NCBI GenBank assembly: GCA_964016885.1
Contig: OZ024755.1
Coordinates: 30,256,001-30,320,000, forward strand
Reading direction: 5' to 3'
From: Eledone cirrhosa
Lineage: Eukaryota
DNA: 64,000 bases
Below are positions 11,875 to 64,000 of the stretch, piece after piece (within the stretch, counting starts at the first letter, position 1; each line of letters opens with the position of its first letter). The notes beneath the pieces were generated by a model. That model did no database searches, was not told the DNA's origin, and saw only the letters and a program-made list of their open reading frames with translations. A program made the position numbers and the translations under genes.

Positions 11875-12947
11875 AGTCAGACAGTTCGGGTGTGGCACTA
11901 ACACCTGCTTCCTGAAGCTCCCACACTTCAGTGACGAAATAACAACAGCCATCCGCAGAGCTTATCAGACGAGAGAGACTAGATATCCAACTAGCCCACT
12001 CAGGACCTTCTCTACGCGGACAGCTAACCAAAAGACACTCCACCAGACATGACAACTGCTGCAAGCTAGCCAACTGCCCCATCAACGACACAGACCTATG
12101 CCACCAGGCTTACGTCGTATACAGACTAGAGTGCGACAAATGCAGCAACTTCTACGTAGGTAGCACCAGCAGACCACTTCACATAAGAATAAAAGAACAC
12201 CTCAATACTAACGCTTCCTCATTTAAGAAACACCGAGTGAAATGCAAAAACACCGACAAAAACATAACAGTTAGGATAGAAACTAAGGAAAGAAACCTCG
12301 GCAATCTTAGAATTAAGGAAGCACTGATTATAGACAAAACGCAACCACCAATCAATAATAGACTAGAACTGAACACCCAATTTTTAACATGATAGAGTAC
12401 CTAGCCCCACACTCACACCCACCCTCTCTCACACACACACACACGCTTACACCTCCACTTATTCTCTCTCACACACACATACACATACAAAGACCAGTCT
12501 TAACATGATAGAGCATCTAGCCCCCACATTTACATATAGACATATCTTCTCACACTCACACACACACATATACTTACGCCTTCACGTATTCTCCCACACA
12601 CTTAAACATACATGTACAAAACCCCTTTTAAAGGGAGACAACTCTTTATCCACCTAACCTTCACTCTTTGACATTAGACATAGAATGGAATCTCTATACC
12701 ATTTCCTGTCAGCATGACTTGGCAAGCTGATTAGAACACTGGATTAACCCCTTTACTTCCCTCCGAAGAAGAGATATTATCTCGAAAATTAAGGATATTT
12801 AAATAAATTTAAGGTAAAAGACTAATTGTCAACAATATCTTTTGCATTTGCCTTTATATTCTATATCCATACCTGCATTGTCTTGGCCTTCCAACTCCAA
12901 ACGTGTATATCTCATTACGCAATGCTTCAAGTAAACTACAACTTCCT

Positions 12948-25016: not shown

Positions 25017-26027
25017 CAACCCTGATGGTATCCAATGATGTTGACTTGTTCTTCTTTTTGGTAAATATCATCTCGGTTAAGAGAGTGGGACTGGTTTTGT
25101 GCAGTGCCTTTGCTCACTATAAAAGCTTCACGGCACAGGCATTGCTTTATATCTGGAGATCTCTCTGCACTTGTCGTCGCGTGGTGCCATGGGCCCAGCG
25201 CTGTGTGTCAATAATTGTCACAAATGTAGTGTTTGTACCAGAGTTTTCAAGTCGCTGACTGGACTAAAAGGTCACACTCGTTCAGCGCATCGGTAGGGGT
25301 TCTCCTACATGGATATAAAGTAGTGGCCGTACTCGAAAACGAATTGGCAGCCACCATGTATGTATGTATGTATGTATGTATGTATGTATGTATGTATGTA
25401 TGTATGTATGTATGTATGTATGTATGTATGCACAGGCATTGCTTTATATCTGAAGATCTCTCTGCACTTGTCGTCACATGGTACCATGGGCCCAGCACTA
25501 TGTGTCAGTAATTGTCACAAGTGTAGTGTTTGTACCAGAGTTTTCAAGTCGCTGGCTGGACTAAAAGGTCACACTCGTTCAGCGCATCGGTAGGGGTTCT
25601 CCTACATGGATATAAAGTAGTGGCCGTACTCGAAAACGAGTTGGCAGCCACCATGTATGTATGTATGTATGTATGTATGTATGTATGTATGTATGTATGT
25701 ATGTATGTATGTATGTATGTATGTATGTATGTATGTATGTATGTATGTATGCACAGGCATTGCTTTATATCTGAAGATCTCTCTGCACTTGTCGTCACAT
25801 GGTACCATGGGCCCAGCACTATGTGTCAGTAATTGTCACAAGTGTAGTGTTTGTACCAGAGTTTTCAAGTCGCTGGCTGGACTAAAAATCACACTCGTTC
25901 AGCGCATCGGTAGGGGTTCTCCTACATGCATATAAAGTAGTGGCCGTACTCGAAAACGAGTTGGCAGCCACCATGTATGTATGTATGTATGTATGTATGT
26001 ATGTATGTATGTATGTATGTATGTATG

Positions 26028-26056
<29 letters not shown>
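25017..26056 (+). mobile_element. Same retroposon family, followed by two further tandem 3' ends, each with a (TATG)n tail
   Basis: Units at about 25017-25356, 25431-25653 and 25751-25973; HKCSVCTRVFKSLAGLKGHTRSAHR. Confidence 0.75.
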
Positions 26057-26060
<4 letters not shown>

Positions 26061-26581
26061 GCTTTTATGTCTGTATGTGCGTGTACTATGTGTGTATATG
26101 TTTGTAGTCGCTGCGTTTGTAAATTAGATCTTGTTTTTTATTGAATCAAATTTTCTATGGCAATTCTCAATTCGAGGATCAAGGCTATAAAGAGAATATT
26201 TACGTTGAACGTTCGGAAAATATGTACTGGATTATATTGAATATAATTTTAGCATGAGAATATAATTGATATCACCATCCTATAAAAATGAAACTATAAT
26301 AACAAAACTGCTCATTTAATATATATGTATGTATGTATATATATATCAATATATATATATGTAAGTATGCATGTATACGTACATACATATATGTATACAG
26401 ACGTACAGTAGCATGCACATATATATATATATATACATATATACATACATATGCATACAGGTACACATACATATATGCACGTATCAGTTTAGCGGCGCTA
26501 ACGTCGCTTTGTTCGTTTGTAAACAAACTGAACAGCCTGAATTTATGCCATACGGTGTTAAGGCAACCACGTCACCTTTTT

Positions 26582-26668
26582 GTTCAACACTGACACAGGA
26601 ACGATGTACTAGTTTCAAGCTTGTTAGCTATCATCAGCACCGTTTACCCATCTGCCAGATAGTTGAAC
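26582..26668 (-). ncRNA. Hammerhead ribozyme, inverted copy in array A
   Basis: Reverse complement of 27263-27349 (TCATCAG at 26631-26637). Confidence 0.88.
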
Positions 26669-27262
26669 GTTCGAAAGTATATACTTTCCTTATGAAAATT
26701 AACGGCTGAGCAGCCTAATTTGCATATTGAGTGAGTTAAATCGGTCAGGCATACCGAAAACGATAAATTGAAACAAAATGAAAACGAAATTTCATTTCTC
26801 ACTCTTAGTATGGCACTTACTTAAATGTAAGTATGCATGCATACGTACATACATATATGTATACAGACGTACAGTAGCATGCACATATATGTATATATAT
26901 ACATATATACATACATATGCATACAGGTACACATACATATATGCACGTATCAGTTTAGCGGCGCTAACGTCGCTTTGTTCGTTTGTAAACAAACTGAACA
27001 GCCTGAATTTATGCCATACGGTGTTAAGGCAACCACGTCACCTTTTTGTTCAACACTGATACGTCTGTATACATATATGTATGTACGTATACATGCATAC
27101 TTACATTTAAGTAAGTGCCATACTAAGAGTGAGAAATGAAATTTCGTTTTCATTTTGTTTCAATTTATCGTTTTCGGTATGCCTGACCGATTTAACTCAC
27201 TCAATATGCAAATTAGGCTGCTCAGCCGTTAATTTTCATAAGGAAAGTATATACTTTCGAAC

Positions 27263-27349
27263 GTTCAACTATCTGGCAGATGGGTAAACGGTGCTGATGA
27301 TAGCTAACAAGCTTGAAACTAGTACATCGTTCCTGTGTCAGTGTTGAAC
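27263..27349 (+). ncRNA. Type I hammerhead ribozyme of array A (plus-strand cores at 27294, 27760, 28226, 28692, 29158, 29624, 30090, 30556)
   Basis: AACGGTG-CTGATGA-T AGCT AACA AGCT T-GAAA-C TA-GTA^CATCGTT; stem I extends via GG/CC past a TA bulge, CTGGCA/TGTCAG and GTTCAAC/GTTGAAC; predicted cut after 27324. Confidence 0.88.
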
Positions 27350-30300
27350 AAAAAGGTGACGTGGTTGCCTTAACACCGTATGGCATAAATTCAGGCTGTT
27401 CAGTTTGTTTACAAACGAACAAAGCGACGTTAGCGCCGCTAAACTGATACGTGCATATATGTATGTGTACCTGTATGCATATGTATGTATATATGTATAT
27501 ATATATATATATGTGCATGCTACTGTACGTCTGTATACATATATGTATGTACGTATACATGCATACTTACATTTAAGTAAGTGCCATACTAAGAGTGAGA
27601 AATGAAATTTCGTTTTCATTTTGTTTCAATTTATCGTTTTCGGTATGCCTGACCGATTTAACTCACTCAATATGCAAATTAGGCTGCTCAGCCGTTAATT
27701 TTCATAAGGAAAGTATATACTTTCGAACGTTCAACTATCTGGCAGATGGGTAAACGGTGCTGATGATAGCTAACAAGCTTGAAACTAGTACATCGTTCCT
27801 GTGTCAGTGTTGAACAAAAAGGTGACGTGGTTGCCTTAACACCGTATGGCATAAATTCAGGCTGTTCAGTTTGTTTACAAACGAACAAAGCGACGTTAGC
27901 GCCGCTAAACTGATACGTGCATATATGTATGTGTACCTGTATGCATATGTATGTATATATGTATATATATATATATATGTGCATGCTACTGTACGTCTGT
28001 ATACATATATGTATGTACGTATACATGCATACTTACATTTAAGTAAGTGCCATACTAAGAGTGAGAAATGAAATTTCGTTTTCATTTTGTTTCAATTTAT
28101 CGTTTTCGGTATGCCTGACCGATTTAACTCACTCAATATGCAAATTAGGCTGCTCAGCCGTTAATTTTCATAAGGAAAGTATATACTTTCGAACGTTCAA
28201 CTATCTGGCAGATGGGTAAACGGTGCTGATGATAGCTAACAAGCTTGAAACTAGTACATCGTTCCTGTGTCAGTGTTGAACAAAAAGGTGACGTGGTTGC
28301 CTTAACACCGTATGGCATAAATTCAGGCTGTTCAGTTTGTTTACAAACGAACAAAGCGACGTTAGCGCCGCTAAACTGATACGTGCATATATGTATGTGT
28401 ACCTGTATGCATATGTATGTATATATGTATATATATATATATATGTGCATGCTACTGTACGTCTGTATACATATATGTATGTACGTATACATGCATACTT
28501 ACATTTAAGTAAGTGCCATACTAAGAGTGAGAAATGAAATTTCGTTTTCATTTTGTTTCAATTTATCGTTTTCGGTATGCCTGACCGATTTAACTCACTC
28601 AATATGCAAATTAGGCTGCTCAGCCGTTAATTTTCATAAGGAAAGTATATACTTTCGAACGTTCAACTATCTGGCAGATGGGTAAACGGTGCTGATGATA
28701 GCTAACAAGCTTGAAACTAGTACATCGTTCCTGTGTCAGTGTTGAACAAAAAGGTGACGTGGTTGCCTTAACACCGTATGGCATAAATTCAGGCTGTTCA
28801 GTTTGTTTACAAACGAACAAAGCGACGTTAGCGCCGCTAAACTGATACGTGCATATATGTATGTGTACCTGTATGCATATGTATGTATATATGTATATAT
28901 ATATATATATGTGCATGCTACTGTACGTCTGTATACATATATGTATGTACGTATACATGCATACTTACATTTAAGTAAGTGCCATACTAAGAGTGAGAAA
29001 TGAAATTTCGTTTTCATTTTGTTTCAATTTATCGTTTTCGGTATGCCTGACCGATTTAACTCACTCAATATGCAAATTAGGCTGCTCAGCCGTTAATTTT
29101 CATAAGGAAAGTATATACTTTCGAACGTTCAACTATCTGGCAGATGGGTAAACGGTGCTGATGATAGCTAACAAGCTTGAAACTAGTACATCGTTCCTGT
29201 GTCAGTGTTGAACAAAAAGGTGACGTGGTTGCCTTAACACCGTATGGCATAAATTCAGGCTGTTCAGTTTGTTTACAAACGAACAAAGCGACGTTAGCGC
29301 CGCTAAACTGATACGTGCATATATGTATGTGTACCTGTATGCATATGTATGTATATATGTATATATATATATATATGTGCATGCTACTGTACGTCTGTAT
29401 ACATATATGTATGTACGTATACATGCATACTTACATTTAAGTAAGTGCCATACTAAGAGTGAGAAATGAAATTTCGTTTTCATTTTGTTTCAATTTATCG
29501 TTTTCGGTATGCCTGACCGATTTAACTCACTCAATATGCAAATTAGGCTGCTCAGCCGTTAATTTTCATAAGGAAAGTATATACTTTCGAACGTTCAACT
29601 ATCTGGCAGATGGGTAAACGGTGCTGATGATAGCTAACAAGCTTGAAACTAGTACATCGTTCCTGTGTCAGTGTTGAACAAAAAGGTGACGTGGTTGCCT
29701 TAACACCGTATGGCATAAATTCAGGCTGTTCAGTTTGTTTACAAACGAACAAAGCGACGTTAGCGCCGCTAAACTGATACGTGCATATATGTATGTGTAC
29801 CTGTATGCATATGTATGTATATATGTATATATATATATATATGTGCATGCTACTGTACGTCTGTATACATATATGTATGTACGTATACATGCATACTTAC
29901 ATTTAAGTAAGTGCCATACTAAGAGTGAGAAATGAAATTTCGTTTTCATTTTGTTTCAATTTATCGTTTTCGGTATGCCTGACCGATTTAACTCACTCAA
30001 TATGCAAATTAGGCTGCTCAGCCGTTAATTTTCATAAGGAAAGTATATACTTTCGAACGTTCAACTATCTGGCAGATGGGTAAACGGTGCTGATGATAGC
30101 TAACAAGCTTGAAACTAGTACATCGTTCCTGTGTCAGTGTTGAACAAAAAGGTGACGTGGTTGCCTTAACACCGTATGGCATAAATTCAGGCTGTTCAGT
30201 TTGTTTACAAACGAACAAAGCGACGTTAGCGCCGCTAAACTGATACGTGCATATATGTATGTGTACCTGTATGCATATGTATGTATATATGTATATATAT

Positions 30301-30888
30301 ATATATATGTGCATGCTACTGTACGTCTGTATACATATATGTATGTACGTATACATGCATACTTACATTTAAGTAAGTGCCATACTAAGAGTGAGAAATG
30401 AAATTTCGTTTTCATTTTGTTTCAATTTATCGTTTTCGGTATGCCTGACCGATTTAACTCACTCAATATGCAAATTAGGCTGCTCAGCCGTTAATTTTCA
30501 TAAGGAAAGTATATACTTTCGAACGTTCAACTATCTGGCAGATGGGTAAACGGTGCTGATGATAGCTAACAAGCTTGAAACTAGTACATCGTTCCTGTGT
30601 CAGTGTTGAACAAAAAGGTGACGTGGTTGCCTTAACACCGTATGGCATAAATTCAGGCTGTTCAGTTTGTTTACAAACGAACAAAGCGACGTTAGCGCTG
30701 CTAAACTGATACGTGCATATATGTATGTGTACCTGTATGCATATGTATGTATATATGTATATATATATATATATGTGCATGCTACTGTACGTCTGTATAC
30801 ATATATGTATGTACGTATACATGCATACTTACATTTAAGTAAGTGCCATACTAAGAGTGAGAAATGAAATTTCGTTTTCATTTTGTTT

Positions 30889-30979
<91 letters not shown>

Positions 30980-57480: not shown

Positions 57481-57544
<64 letters not shown>

Positions 57545-57720
57545 ATACTTTGGGAGGGTCATGTTGCCAATAAGAAACACACGCACCAGTTGCTTTCACT
57601 TCAATTTATTATATATTTATAAATTTATAAATTAAATTAAATTTATAAATTTACAAATCTACAAACTTATAAATTTCTGGTTGGTTGGTTGGTTCCACAA
57701 CCAGATAGTTGTTTATATAT

Positions 57721-57765
57721 AGTCATAGTCCTTTCGTCACACACTCTGCGACCTCTTCAGTGACT
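57721..57765 (-). ncRNA. Minimal hammerhead motif
   Basis: Minus: AGTCA-CTGAAGA-G GTCGCA GAGTG TGTGAC-GAAAG GA CTA^TGACT; same layout as 50700-50743. Confidence 0.7.
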
Positions 57766-57868
57766 GGGGATTCCTTTCTTTGTTTCTGTGCCTTTCCTTT
57801 CTTCTATCCTAATATATATATATATATGTATGTATATACATCACTAGCGTAGATATCATTTGACAATA

Positions 57869-58700: not shown

Positions 58701-58708
58701 ATATATAT

Positions 58709-58749
<41 letters not shown>

Positions 58750-58944
58750 GTTAAAGATGTACATCCATATATGTATACTGAAATACTAGTATGTATATGA
58801 ATACACACACGTATACATATGTAGATGTACCAAGTTTTTTCACTGGTCACTTTACTGTGAGTGGCCAGCTATTCTGTATGTAAACACACAGACAAACCGG
58901 TTTTTAGAGTCATACTGGTTTTTGAGGAAACACCTTTCCTCTAT

Positions 58945-59036
58945 TCTCCAGAAAGCCAGACAAGGAATATTGAACTAGTTTCGTTGTTGTTACAACTCAT
59001 CAGCAATATTTACCTATCTTCCGGCCTCTCTAGAGA
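58945..59036 (-). ncRNA. Hammerhead ribozyme in the minus arm of array B (7 copies; TCATCAG at 58997, 59464, 59931, 60398, 60865, 61332, 61799)
   Basis: Reverse complement of 62401-62492. Confidence 0.92.
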
Positions 59037-62000
59037 ATCGTAAAAGCACATATCGTTATATGCTTTTTCTATGAAAATTAGTAGTGGGCAGACTAATTTG
59101 CATAGAGTGTGAGTAAGTACCGGTTCAACGGAGACGATAAAAACAAATAACGAAACGAAATTAAATTTCGTTTCGTTTGTAACTCACTTTTGTATGACTG
59201 ACGCTTAAACAATTAAGTTAAAGATGTACATCCATATATGTATACTGAAATACTAGTATGTATATGAATACACACACGTATACATATGTAGATGTACCAA
59301 GTTTTTTCACTGGTCACTTTACTGTGAGTGGCCAGCTATTCTGTATGTAAACACACAGACAAACCGGTTTTTAGAGTCATACTGGTTTTTGAGGAAACAC
59401 CTTTCCTCTATTCTCCAGAAAGCCAGACAAGGAATATTGAACTAGTTTCGTTGTTGTTACAACTCATCAGCAATATTTACCTATCTTCCGGCCTCTCTAG
59501 AGAATCGTAAAAGCACATATCGTTATATGCTTTTTCTATGAAAATTAGTAGTGGGCAGACTAATTTGCATAGAGTGTGAGTAAGTACCGGTTCAACGGAG
59601 ACGATAAAAACAAATAACGAAACGAAATTAAATTTCGTTTCGTTTGTAACTCACTTTTGTATGACTGACGCTTAAACAATTAAGTTAAAGATGTACATCC
59701 ATATATGTATACTGAAATACTAGTATGTATATGAATACACACACGTATACATATGTAGATGTACCAAGTTTTTTCACTGGTCACTTTACTGTGAGTGGCC
59801 AGCTATTCTGTATGTAAACACACAGACAAACCGGTTTTTAGAGTCATACTGGTTTTTGAGGAAACACCTTTCCTCTATTCTCCAGAAAGCCAGACAAGGA
59901 ATATTGAACTAGTTTCGTTGTTGTTACAACTCATCAGCAATATTTACCTATCTTCCGGCCTCTCTAGAGAATCGTAAAAGCACATATCGTTATATGCTTT
60001 TTCTATGAAAATTAGTAGTGGGCAGACTAATTTGCATAGAGTGTGAGTAAGTACCGGTTCAACGGAGACGATAAAAACAAATAACGAAACGAAATTAAAT
60101 TTCGTTTCGTTTGTAACTCACTTTTGTATGACTGACGCTTAAACAATTAAGTTAAAGATGTACATCCATATATGTATACTGAAATACTAGTATGTATATG
60201 AATACACACACGTATACATATGTAGATGTACCAAGTTTTTTCACTGGTCACTTTACTGTGAGTGGCCAGCTATTCTGTATGTAAACACACAGACAAACCG
60301 GTTTTTAGAGTCATACTGGTTTTTGAGGAAACACCTTTCCTCTATTCTCCAGAAAGCCAGACAAGGAATATTGAACTAGTTTCGTTGTTGTTACAACTCA
60401 TCAGCAATATTTACCTATCTTCCGGCCTCTCTAGAGAATCGTAAAAGCACATATCGTTATATGCTTTTTCTATGAAAATTAGTAGTGGGCAGACTAATTT
60501 GCATAGAGTGTGAGTAAGTACCGGTTCAACGGAGACGATAAAAACAAATAACGAAACGAAATTAAATTTCGTTTCGTTTGTAACTCACTTTTGTATGACT
60601 GACGCTTAAACAATTAAGTTAAAGATGTACATCCATATATGTATACTGAAATACTAGTATGTATATGAATACACACACGTATACATATGTAGATGTACCA
60701 AGTTTTTTCACTGGTCACTTTACTGTGAGTGGCCAGCTATTCTGTATGTAAACACACAGACAAACCGGTTTTTAGAGTCATACTGGTTTTTGAGGAAACA
60801 CCTTTCCTCTATTCTCCAGAAAGCCAGACAAGGAATATTGAACTAGTTTCGTTGTTGTTACAACTCATCAGCAATATTTACCTATCTTCCGGCCTCTCTA
60901 GAGAATCGTAAAAGCACATATCGTTATATGCTTTTTCTATGAAAATTAGTAGTGGGCAGACTAATTTGCATAGAGTGTGAGTAAGTACCGGTTCAACGGA
61001 GACGATAAAAACAAATAACGAAACGAAATTAAATTTCGTTTCGTTTGTAACTCACTTTTGTATGACTGACGCTTAAACAATTAAGTTAAAGATGTACATC
61101 CATATATGTATACTGAAATACTAGTATGTATATGAATACACACACGTATACATATGTAGATGTACCAAGTTTTTTCACTGGTCACTTTACTGTGAGTGGC
61201 CAGCTATTCTGTATGTAAACACACAGACAAACCGGTTTTTAGAGTCATACTGGTTTTTGAGGAAACACCTTTCCTCTATTCTCCAGAAAGCCAGACAAGG
61301 AATATTGAACTAGTTTCGTTGTTGTTACAACTCATCAGCAATATTTACCTATCTTCCGGCCTCTCTAGAGAATCGTAAAAGCACATATCGTTATATGCTT
61401 TTTCTATGAAAATTAGTAGTGGGCAGACTAATTTGCATAGAGTGTGAGTAAGTACCGGTTCAACGGAGACGATAAAAACAAATAACGAAACGAAATTAAA
61501 TTTCGTTTCGTTTGTAACTCACTTTTGTATGACTGACGCTTAAACAATTAAGTTAAAGATGTACATCCATATATGTATACTGAAATACTAGTATGTATAT
61601 GAATACACACACGTATACATATGTAGATGTACCAAGTTTTTTCACTGGTCACTTTACTGTGAGTGGCCAGCTATTCTGTATGTAAACACACAGACAAACC
61701 GGTTTTTAGAGTCATACTGGTTTTTGAGGAAACACCTTTCCTCTATTCTCCAGAAAGCCAGACAAGGAATATTGAACTAGTTTCGTTGTTGTTACAACTC
61801 ATCAGCAATATTTACCTATCTTCCGGCCTCTCTAGAGGATCGTAAAAGCACATATCGTTATATGCTTTTTCTATGAAAATTAGTAGTGGGCAGACTAATT
61901 TGCATAGAGTGTGAGTAAGTACCGGTTCAACGGAGACGATAAAAACAAATAACGAAACGAAATTAAATTTCGTTTCGTTTGTAACTCACTTTTGTATGAC

Positions 62001-62400
62001 TGACGCTTGTCTGGCTTTCTGGAGAATAGAGGAAAGGTGTTTCCTCAAAAACCAGTATGACTCTAAAAACCGGTTTGTCTGTGTGTTTACATACAGAATA
62101 GCTGGCCACTCACAGTAAAGTGACCAGTGAAAAAACTTGGTACATCTACATATGTATACGTGTGTGTATTCATATACATACTAGTATTTCAGTATACATA
62201 TATGGATGTACATCTTTAACTTAATTGTTTAAGCGTCAGTCATACAAAAGTGAGTTACAAACGAAACGAAATTTAATTTCGTTTCGTTATTTGTTTTTAT
62301 CGTCTCCGTTGAACCGGTACTTACTCACACTCTATGCAAATTAGTCTGCCCACTACTAATTTTCATAGAAAAAGCATATAACGATATGTGCTTTTACGAT

Positions 62401-62492
62401 TCTCTAGAGAGGCCGGAAGATAGGTAAATATTGCTGATGAGTTGTAACAACAACGAAACTAGTTCAATATTCCTTGTCTGGCTTTCTGGAGA
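62401..62492 (+). ncRNA. Type I hammerhead ribozyme of array B (plus-strand cores at 62434, 62901, 63368, 63835)
   Basis: AATATTG-CTGATGA-GTTGT AACA ACAAC-GAAA-C TA-GTT^CAATATT; stem I extends AGG/CCT past a TA bulge and TCTCTAGAGAGGCCGGA/TCTGGCTTTCTGGAGA; predicted cut after 62464. Confidence 0.92.
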
Positions 62493-64000
62493 ATAGAGGA
62501 AAGGTGTTTCCTCAAAAACCAGTATGACTCTAAAAACCGGTTTGTCTGTGTGTTTACATACAGAATAGCTGGCCACTCACAGTAAAGTGACCAGTGAAAA
62601 AACTTGGTACATCTACATATGTATACGTGTGTGTATTCATATACATACTAGTATTTCAGTATACATATATGGATGTACATCTTTAACTTAATTGTTTAAG
62701 CGTCAGTCATACAAAAGTGAGTTACAAACGAAACGAAATTTAATTTCGTTTCGTTATTTGTTTTTATCGTCTCCGTTGAACCGGTACTTACTCACACTCT
62801 ATGCAAATTAGTCTGCCCACTACTAATTTTCATAGAAAAAGCATATAACGATATGTGCTTTTACGATTCTCTAGAGAGGCCGGAAGATAGGTAAATATTG
62901 CTGATGAGTTGTAACAACAACGAAACTAGTTCAATATTCCTTGTCTGGCTTTCTGGAGAATAGAGGAAAGGTGTTTCCTCAAAAACCAGTATGACTCTAA
63001 AAACCGGTTTGTCTGTGTGTTTACATACAGAATAGCTGGCCACTCACAGTAAAGTGACCAGTGAAAAAACTTGGTACATCTACATATGTATACGTGTGTG
63101 TATTCATATACATACTAGTATTTCAGTATACATATATGGATGTACATCTTTAACTTAATTGTTTAAGCGTCAGTCATACAAAAGTGAGTTACAAACGAAA
63201 CGAAATTTAATTTCGTTTCGTTATTTGTTTTTATCGTCTCCGTTGAACCGGTACTTACTCACACTCTATGCAAATTAGTCTGCCCACTACTAATTTTCAT
63301 AGAAAAAGCATATAACGATATGTGCTTTTACGATTCTCTAGAGAGGCCGGAAGATAGGTAAATATTGCTGATGAGTTGTAACAACAACGAAACTAGTTCA
63401 ATATTCCTTGTCTGGCTTTCTGGAGAATAGAGGAAAGGTGTTTCCTCAAAAACCAGTATGACTCTAAAAACCGGTTTGTCTGTGTGTTTACATACAGAAT
63501 AGCTGGCCACTCACAGTAAAGTGACCAGTGAAAAAACTTGGTACATCTACATATGTATACGTGTGTGTATTCATATACATACTAGTATTTCAGTATACAT
63601 ATATGGATGTACATCTTTAACTTAATTGTTTAAGCGTCAGTCATACAAAAGTGAGTTACAAACGAAACGAAATTTAATTTCGTTTCGTTATTTGTTTTTA
63701 TCGTCTCCGTTGAACCGGTACTTACTCACACTCTATGCAAATTAGTCTGCCCACTACTAATTTTCATAGAAAAAGCATATAACGATATGTGCTTTTACGA
63801 TTCTCTAGAGAGGCCGGAAGATAGGTAAATATTGCTGATGAGTTGTAACAACAACGAAACTAGTTCAATATTCCTTGTCTGGCTTTCTGGAGAATAGAGG
63901 AAAGGTGTTTCCTCAAAAACCAGTATGACTCTAAAAACCGGTTTGTCTGTGTGTTTACATACAGAATAGCTGGCCACTCACAGTAAAGTGACCAGTGAAA

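Follow-up and report, generated by a model that had tools for sequence, protein, structure and literature searches.

A young two-armed hammerhead retrozyme array in Eledone cirrhosa, probably copied by a Penelope-type enzyme from both ends of a cut (TA)n tract

Hammerhead ribozymes occur in tandem at the right-hand end of a 64,000-nucleotide stretch of the Eledone cirrhosa genome (GenBank assembly GCA_964016885.1, contig OZ024755.1, positions 30,256,001 to 30,320,000 of the forward strand; the whole stretch is called the window below), in an array of 467-bp units which we call array B. In this study, we conclude that array B is probably one young two-armed insertion of a retrozyme that lacks long terminal repeats (a non-LTR retrozyme), in which a Penelope-type reverse transcriptase (RT) copied a predicted 467-nt RNA circle from both ends of a cut (TA)n tract. 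Judged by its sequence-level marks, array B belongs to a known class, the non-LTR retrozymes (PMC7229834), and it provides unusually clear genomic evidence for the mechanism of that class.

Results

The 467-bp repeat begins at 58744, reaches the end of the window (64000) and continues past it to window-equivalent position 65569. It consists of two head-to-head arms flanked by (TA)n tracts, one at the left edge (58701..58743) and a similar (AT)n tract after the right arm, beyond the window. The left arm (58744..62008, minus strand in ribozyme sense) comprises 7.0 units with seven hammerheads, and the right arm (62006..64000 and on to 65569, plus strand) comprises 7.6 units with seven hammerheads, four of them inside the window, so that array B holds 14 ribozymes overall. 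Counting unit positions from the predicted cut (62465 being unit position 1), the two arms meet in a 3-bp CTT common to both (62006..62008), which is position 234 in the left arm and position 9 in the right arm. The outer end of the left arm lies at unit 229 (the "short", tail-less end), and that of the right arm at unit 303 (the "long", tailed end). On the plus strand of the right arm, unit 229-234 (62226..62231) corresponds to the short end that is fixed across family B and may be the first reverse-transcription start. It is followed by a "tail" of about 70 nt (unit 235-303, 62232..62300), which includes a hairpin of 13 bp and, at 62294-62298, a T5 run, and by the fixed long end itself (62300), which may be the second start. 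One unit from cut site to cut site (62465..62931, plus strand) is the predicted 467-nt monomer. All copies in array B are alike save for a single base at 61838, with 1 difference in 6,550 compared bases. A previous sequence-only reading of the window had described a 467-bp unit inserted at (TA)n, and both the repeat analysis and the tracts at the two edges agree with it. Its 11 hammerheads, one per unit, were also recovered by our motif scan of the window, but it missed that seven are on the minus strand and four on the plus strand; likewise its left start at 58744 is right, whereas the inversion at 62006-62008 and the extension to 65569 had escaped it. The label "satellite" that it used understates array B, which behaves as a dispersed insertion.

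The ribozyme is a type I hammerhead, predicted to cut itself after 62464 in the example at 62422..62474 (plus strand). Helix I consists of 7 bp (AATATTG/CAATATT), a 2-nt bulge and a further 3 bp, helix II of 5 bp (GTTGT-AACA-ACAAC, with the G10.1-C11.1 pair), and a minimal helix III carries a palindromic loop; the core is CUGAUGA/GAAA and the site GUU. Thus, the features that define type I, namely the core CUGANGA/GAAA/UH, three helices and an open helix I, are all present in the motif. Between subfamilies, paired changes are found in helix II (U-A to A-U) and in helix I, and H17 is U, C or A. The stems, core, G10.1-C11.1 pair, GUU site and cut position proposed earlier were all found again by the motif scan, and the word "canonical" applies in the sense of PMC4209133, where a helix III of 1-2 bp with a palindromic loop is given as the usual animal type I form, active as a dimer. 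A search of Rfam gave no match to array B at the gathering score; the best match below it was to Hammerhead_HH9, with 37.7 bits where 52 are required (E 4.8e-8). A minimal, palindromic helix III of this form implies cleavage that depends on dimers, and the predicted energies are about 6 kcal/mol as the cost of closing helix III in the monomer and -4.8 for pairing of the palindrome between two copies. The monomer is predicted to fold at -155.4 kcal/mol (z = -11.4), and its consensus fold has 150 pairs, just 5 of which show changes on both sides among seven units. The unit has a G+C content of 35% and no open reading frame (ORF) above 30 codons, the longest ATG-initiated one being 30 codons. No ORF for RT and GIY-YIG was found within array B, which is therefore not an autonomous Penelope-like element.

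Exact-pattern matching over the genome gave 5,136 matches to the B ribozyme (a 34-mer pattern), 10,394 to that of array A, another array in the window, and 19,085 to a common pattern. The reversed B 34-mer had 0 matches, and the B matches are therefore not due to chance. The long end of B joined to (AT)n occurs 1,970 times exactly and the short end joined to (TA)n 1,409 times, with 0 for the control in each case. There are thus at least 1,970 separate B insertion ends, and the family is present at about two thousand or more places in the genome. These thousands of exact matches, the number of B ends and the near identity of the copies in array B (1 difference in 6,550 bases) bear out the proposal of a young class that is abundant genome-wide. 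On the other hand, A and B had been taken as distinct, independent families, and this does not hold. Array A (26356..30896; 1.5 units on the minus strand and 8.2 on the plus strand, with ends at unit 251 and 310) aligns with B over the whole unit with 305 identities in 431 aligned columns (~71%), at a score of 368 versus 177 +/- 10.5 for 200 shuffles. With this alignment, the two-armed layout and homologous ends in common, A and B are subfamilies of one lineage.

The arrangement of array B recurs at other loci. We took two samples, one of 32 loci (the 27 behind the first 100 B ribozyme matches and five of a variant subfamily) and one of 89 loci picked by a long end that adjoins (AT)n, for which 100 matches were listed and 10 left out. 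The two samples have 16 loci in common, and all sampled loci except array B itself come from the start of contig C1; a duplicate (L270, of L269) and short matches in TA-rich flanks (L272, L286, L287, L299 and L328) were dropped. Among the 32 ribozyme-picked loci, 25 are head to head, seven single-armed and none tail to tail, and the ends lie at 301-304 and 228-234 in 24 of the 25 head-to-head loci, four second arms being merely 12-16 nt long. An inverted second arm was present at 65 of the 89 long-end-picked loci, in 12 cases running off the sampled stretch; 49 of the 53 resolved second arms end at 228-235, and 46 of these 49 lie beside (TA)n. Arm lengths are continuous, with a median long arm of 567 nt, and inner ends are scattered. 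By eye, about 19 of 29 two-armed A loci show the same layout, and the remainder are mostly ambiguous because A has an unstable TA tract.

An inverted partner copy, a one-sided tail and an AT-rich target make the geometry of array B a Penelope-type geometry. An inverted copy and a one-sided tail are described as Penelope marks (10.1101/2021.04.23.441226), and a Penelope protein has been reported to cut and extend both strands at AT-rich DNA and to initiate at two internal RNA sites that bound the tail (PMC11167929). The host genome is rich in such elements. It contains 10,596 GIY-YIG candidates, and among the 150 that were scored several frames carry RT and are stop-free over 844-1,096 amino acids. 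The CX2-5CxxC motif, which has been tied to Neptune, Nematis and Naiad enzymes and tentatively to (TA)n targets (10.1101/2021.04.23.441226), is present in five of six Penelope-like families. Furthermore, at five of 20 sampled loci (L106, L107, L110, L112 and L116) autonomous RT and GIY-YIG elements have an inverted tail-less arm and a tailed main arm in (TA)n, with a tail of 40-62 nt. A Penelope-type enzyme is thus the likely copier of B. As for a particular partner, comparison of 40 GIY-YIG loci with both units gave merely 30-nt antisense matches (E 0.69), and no B arm fused to a Penelope ORF was found among 90 loci. Two side observations concern these elements. A Penelope-like ORF fragment at 11979-12389 of the window is 93% identical to the family of L111, with a hammerhead-like motif about 1.2 kb downstream (13642). 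Inspection by eye of the 3' regions of L110 and L107 shows minimal hammerhead variants that lie upstream of the element ends and have a U3-A8 pair, that of L107 having GCAA in place of GAAA.

Arms of the same locus differ less from each other (0.7%) than from the median other locus (3.9%) at every one of the 22 two-armed loci compared; the two stem from one template. Arms running across the cut site are common (69 of 89 long, 51 of 65 short), and no pile-up of inner ends at the cut site was found (13 of 148 versus 10.5 expected). From the sequences, this template was probably a 467-nt RNA circle that was copied round. Contigs from four sequencing runs that close on themselves at 467 were not used as evidence for a circle, because tandem DNA gives the same result.

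Some templates appear to carry marks of editing. Among differences fixed in all copies of a locus, A>G outnumbers T>C by 60 to 23 (P 6e-5) when read on the ribozyme strand, in which A is as frequent as T. This test covered 98 loci; nine of 107 lacked three neighbours and were excluded, as was position 391 of L276, where G is the family majority. Eleven A>G changes recur in successive units of L276, five of them found at no other locus, seven recur in both arms of L275, and three in all units of C1_30830346. Such multi-site A>G patterns, the same in every unit, accord with repeated copying of a single edited monomer. Copies at one locus differ from each other in another way, with 123 G>A versus 51 C>T on the ribozyme strand in 107 B loci, an excess which could reflect deamination of single-stranded complementary DNA (cDNA), enzyme error or transcription-linked repair. 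A first within-locus tally of A/G versus C/T was discarded, as gap placement at unit 128-141 had inflated it.

The same Penelope-type enzyme might instead have copied a linear multimeric read-through transcript, with the long end at 303 being an oligo-U end made by RNA polymerase III (Pol III) and a circle being unnecessary. Downstream of the transcription start predicted below, at least four consecutive T are indeed first met in the T5 at unit 297-301, at the long end, and five long arms stop 343-360 nt from their end, near that start, versus 1.6 expected (P 0.027, with the window chosen post hoc). A homogeneous donor array would likewise yield identical arms, and uncleaved RNA is reported as the main substrate in vitro (PMC11167929). 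However, editing of a linear RNA unit by unit is not expected to leave the same multi-site A>G clusters from one unit to the next and on both arms, the long end of A lies 8-12 nt beyond the first T4 runs, and both arms are often longer than one unit with overlapping content. We therefore regard a linear template as unlikely.

A still less probable alternative is that about one unit per arm was inserted in the Penelope manner and that the arms then grew in place by unequal crossing-over or gene conversion, a mode of growth proposed in 10.64898/2026.07.22.740005. The block or periodic variants in some long arrays and the median long arm of just one unit and a little more (567 nt) would suit such growth, and conversion between inverted arms could equalise them. 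Yet in the youngest arrays both arms at once consist of many identical units (1 difference in 8,873 and 1 in 6,550 bases), arm lengths are continuous with scattered inner ends, and edited clusters are identical across the overlap of partial and full units.

It is very improbable that a long interspersed nuclear element (LINE), for example of the RTE type common here, copied the RNA by twin priming in the fashion of L1. Twin priming of the L1 type yields head-to-head inversions, and an RTE-type ORF of 1,040 amino acids lies within one B locus, but under twin priming the inner end of one arm should abut the outer end of its partner, and the second start should vary, whereas in B loci both starts are fixed and the inner ends scattered, and no LINE-type tail is found at B ends. 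We rejected that ORF as the enzyme of B, since its element is nested in a B arm with a short duplication and is thus a later arrival. This LINE (L033:3448-8210) has an open frame with endonuclease, RT and PHD finger, and three tandem copies of its own 5' region.

It is scarcely credible that an ordinary satellite acquired the inversion through an assembly or fold-back artefact: inverted repeats are a known long-read artefact and the junction at 62006-62008 is known from the assembly alone, but the polarity and the two ends recur at dozens of loci with differing junctions, and in sequencing run X1, possibly that of the source sample, 12 contigs have loose ends that pass into (AT)n at 62300.

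We also lean, with some reserve, towards a promoter inside each unit. A candidate motif at unit 334-355 (62331..62352, plus strand) resembles the upstream element of U6 genes, its first 14 bases being the same as the -78 element of a host U6 gene (14/14); it also forms one side of a hairpin predicted in the RNA and is where A-to-G changes mainly fall. A TATA-like hexamer (62377..62382, plus strand) follows 43 nt after the motif, and the predicted transcription start is at 62407-62411 (unit 410-414), just upstream of the ribozyme; the arm lengths given above provide a faint hint of such a start. In the host, the element at -77 to -79 together with TATA at -30 was found in three distinct U6 upstream regions and in the best U6atac match, and it was not found in 14 other U6 matches, five other U6atac matches, five U2 genes or one RNase P match. 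A profile of these four promoters scored 22.1 for B and 16.1 for A, with 11.4-22.8 for the left-out genes and a background maximum of 14.2 over 582,096 positions. Across 107 loci the least variable parts are unit 334-400 and both end regions, the figure for the tail being biased by the way loci were picked; variation is 0.5-2.0% in unit 334-400 versus 5-9% over most of the body, and at unit 334-350 it is almost all A>G. As to a U2-type promoter, no octamer-like motif or similarity was found with the regions upstream of five U2 genes, and likewise with the RNase P match. A fixed slice of U6 and U2 promoters (-70..-45) did no better than shuffles, the actual match lying at -79..-58.

Two observations on host small nuclear RNA (snRNA) genes were made in passing. 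The RNase P match (L218) has a U2-like rather than a U6-type upstream motif (compare U2 loci L121, L123 and L239), which gives a hint of RNA polymerase II (Pol II) transcription of RNase P. Large tandem arrays are formed by a variant U6 gene at C19:31.78-31.84 Mb and by U2 genes at C3:307.35-307.45 Mb.

Discussion

The results suggest the following course of events. The U6-type element in the unit would drive transcription from just upstream of the hammerhead, with some read-through, and paired hammerheads are predicted to cut the multimers into 467-nt monomers, which a host ligase would close; ligation of monomers by a host ligase has been reported for coral, mussel and axolotl (PMC7229834). 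The double-stranded RNA may sometimes undergo adenosine-to-inosine (A-to-I) editing. As the junctions suggest, a Penelope-like RT/GIY-YIG protein would then cut both strands of a (TA)n tract, and cDNA would begin on each of the two DNA ends from its own fixed internal site, the two sites lying about 70 nt from each other. Both cDNAs would stop at scattered places, and a head-to-head join between them, in most cases overlapping little or not at all, would follow. In old loci, arrays are observed to have been altered afterwards by mutation and local duplication.

Several findings weigh against this scheme. With regard to cleavage, closure of helix III at low cost is predicted to be impossible in the monomer, only 1 of 9 Xenopus retrozyme dimers is reported to have been cleaved (10.64898/2026.07.22.740005), and insertion in vitro proceeded without need for ribozyme cleavage (PMC11167929). 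With regard to the enzyme, the pseudo-LTR (pLTR) regions of six Penelope-like families are no more similar to the two units than shuffles are. The pairing of one long with one short end is not strict: a single arm is present at 7 of 32 loci, 4 of the 53 second arms that were resolved have their end elsewhere, two head-to-head pairs of short ends occur among the first 100 short-end matches listed, and one A locus has two short ends. Array B itself bears no A>G mark, and L275 and L317 have four A>G changes in common, so that some were inherited. Block or period-2/3 variant patterns in some long arrays (C1_5735500, a 31-mer, C1_56385000 and C1_54242400) imply that part of the array length may be post-insertion duplication or come from multimeric templates. 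As for the promoter, the profile was trained on only four host Pol III snRNA promoters; the spacing from motif to TATA is 42-43 nt in the units versus 46-48 nt in the four host genes, that is, 4-5 nt short; each unit has a T5 and two T4 runs, which are expected to stop Pol III; the motif doubles as half of an RNA hairpin; and metazoan retrozymes seem to be promoter-less (PMC7761336). Among the arrays that we came across, L178-L179 (C1:5738093-5752746) pairs a 31-unit arm, along which shared variants form blocks, with one of 0.7 units.

Tentatively, one might go further and regard the element as a self-promoting RNA circle with a captured U6-type promoter, edited by the host mostly in the promoter hairpin and copied into both ends of a break at once by a dimeric Penelope enzyme. 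The captured promoter would then be heritable only because the RNA is circular, and editing mostly in the promoter hairpin would lead to promoter-damaged insertions. If this is true, single RNA molecules that had been edited are recorded in the DNA of the genome by the thousand, and a ribozyme retroelement is held in check by editing.

Array B resembles the metazoan non-LTR retrozymes (PMC7229834, 10.64898/2026.07.22.740005) in its non-coding tandem unit with one type I hammerhead and low G+C content, its strongly self-paired monomer, its thousands of dispersed copies, from monomers to 31-mers, and the co-occurrence of Penelope-like elements. In contrast to them, its unit of 467 nt is just over the published 150-450 bp, and it has head-to-head two-armed insertions, two fixed ends, a U6-type motif and recurrent A>G clusters. 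The main texts of these two papers, supplements aside, do not contain the words "inverted" (bar one reference), "tail" or "orientation". Unlike the Xenopus retrozymes described in 10.64898/2026.07.22.740005, B showed no homology to host pLTRs in the six families sampled. With endonuclease-bearing Penelope-like elements, as described in 10.1101/2021.04.23.441226 and PMC11167929, B shares an inverted 5'-truncated copy, a one-sided tail, microsatellite or AT-rich targets, a hammerhead upstream of the ends and two internal starts, but it has no ORF. Its tail is also longer, at about 70 nt compared with 55-60 in A, 40-62 in host elements and a usual 30-40 in Penelope-like elements, and it has a U6-type motif where host Penelope-like elements have, by eye, CCAAT/TATA-like pLTR sequence. 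Newt satellite 2 and schistosome hammerhead repeats (PMC6765202, PMC2220036) are similar in that a promoter in one unit drives the next and a short helix III works as a dimer. The newt promoter is of the snRNA type and read by Pol II, whereas the schistosome repeats are read by Pol III (PMC6765202, PMC2220036); the B motif matches the upstream element of host U6 and U6atac genes and not the upstream region of host U2 genes.

Penelope-like partners have been proposed for animal retrozymes from co-occurrence and end homology, and rolling-circle copying is given as a model (PMC7229834, 10.64898/2026.07.22.740005). To this the B family adds named positions, namely the starts at 229-234 and 303, the candidate promoter at 334-385, the transcription start at 410-414, and the cut and editing sites. 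It would extend the finding of two start sites for the anole Penelope protein (PMC11167929) to a non-coding passenger, suggests that one RNA serves both DNA ends, and offers a testable answer to the question of how such elements spread. In the literature outside subscription journals and supplements, we found no paper on the B family or on inverted, tailed or edited retrozyme insertions.

Other elements nearby

Further repeats with hammerheads lie in the same window. One kb to the left of array B, an unrelated element at 57540-57780 (minus strand), which ends in (TA)n as well, contains a third hammerhead in a single copy (its core, CUGAAGA, is at 57760), and sequence related to this element lies beside L102, L103 and L116. 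At 2450 (minus strand) and 2556 (plus strand), some 100 bp from each other, two copies of another hammerhead-like motif lie head to head, with (AT)n tracts on either side. They make up a tiny two-armed insertion from a further family, which also occurs in L103, L106, L110 and L117. Adjoining array A, at 25133-26047, a 297-bp unit is present three times, with (ATGT)n tracts between the copies, and sequence related to this region flanks L107.

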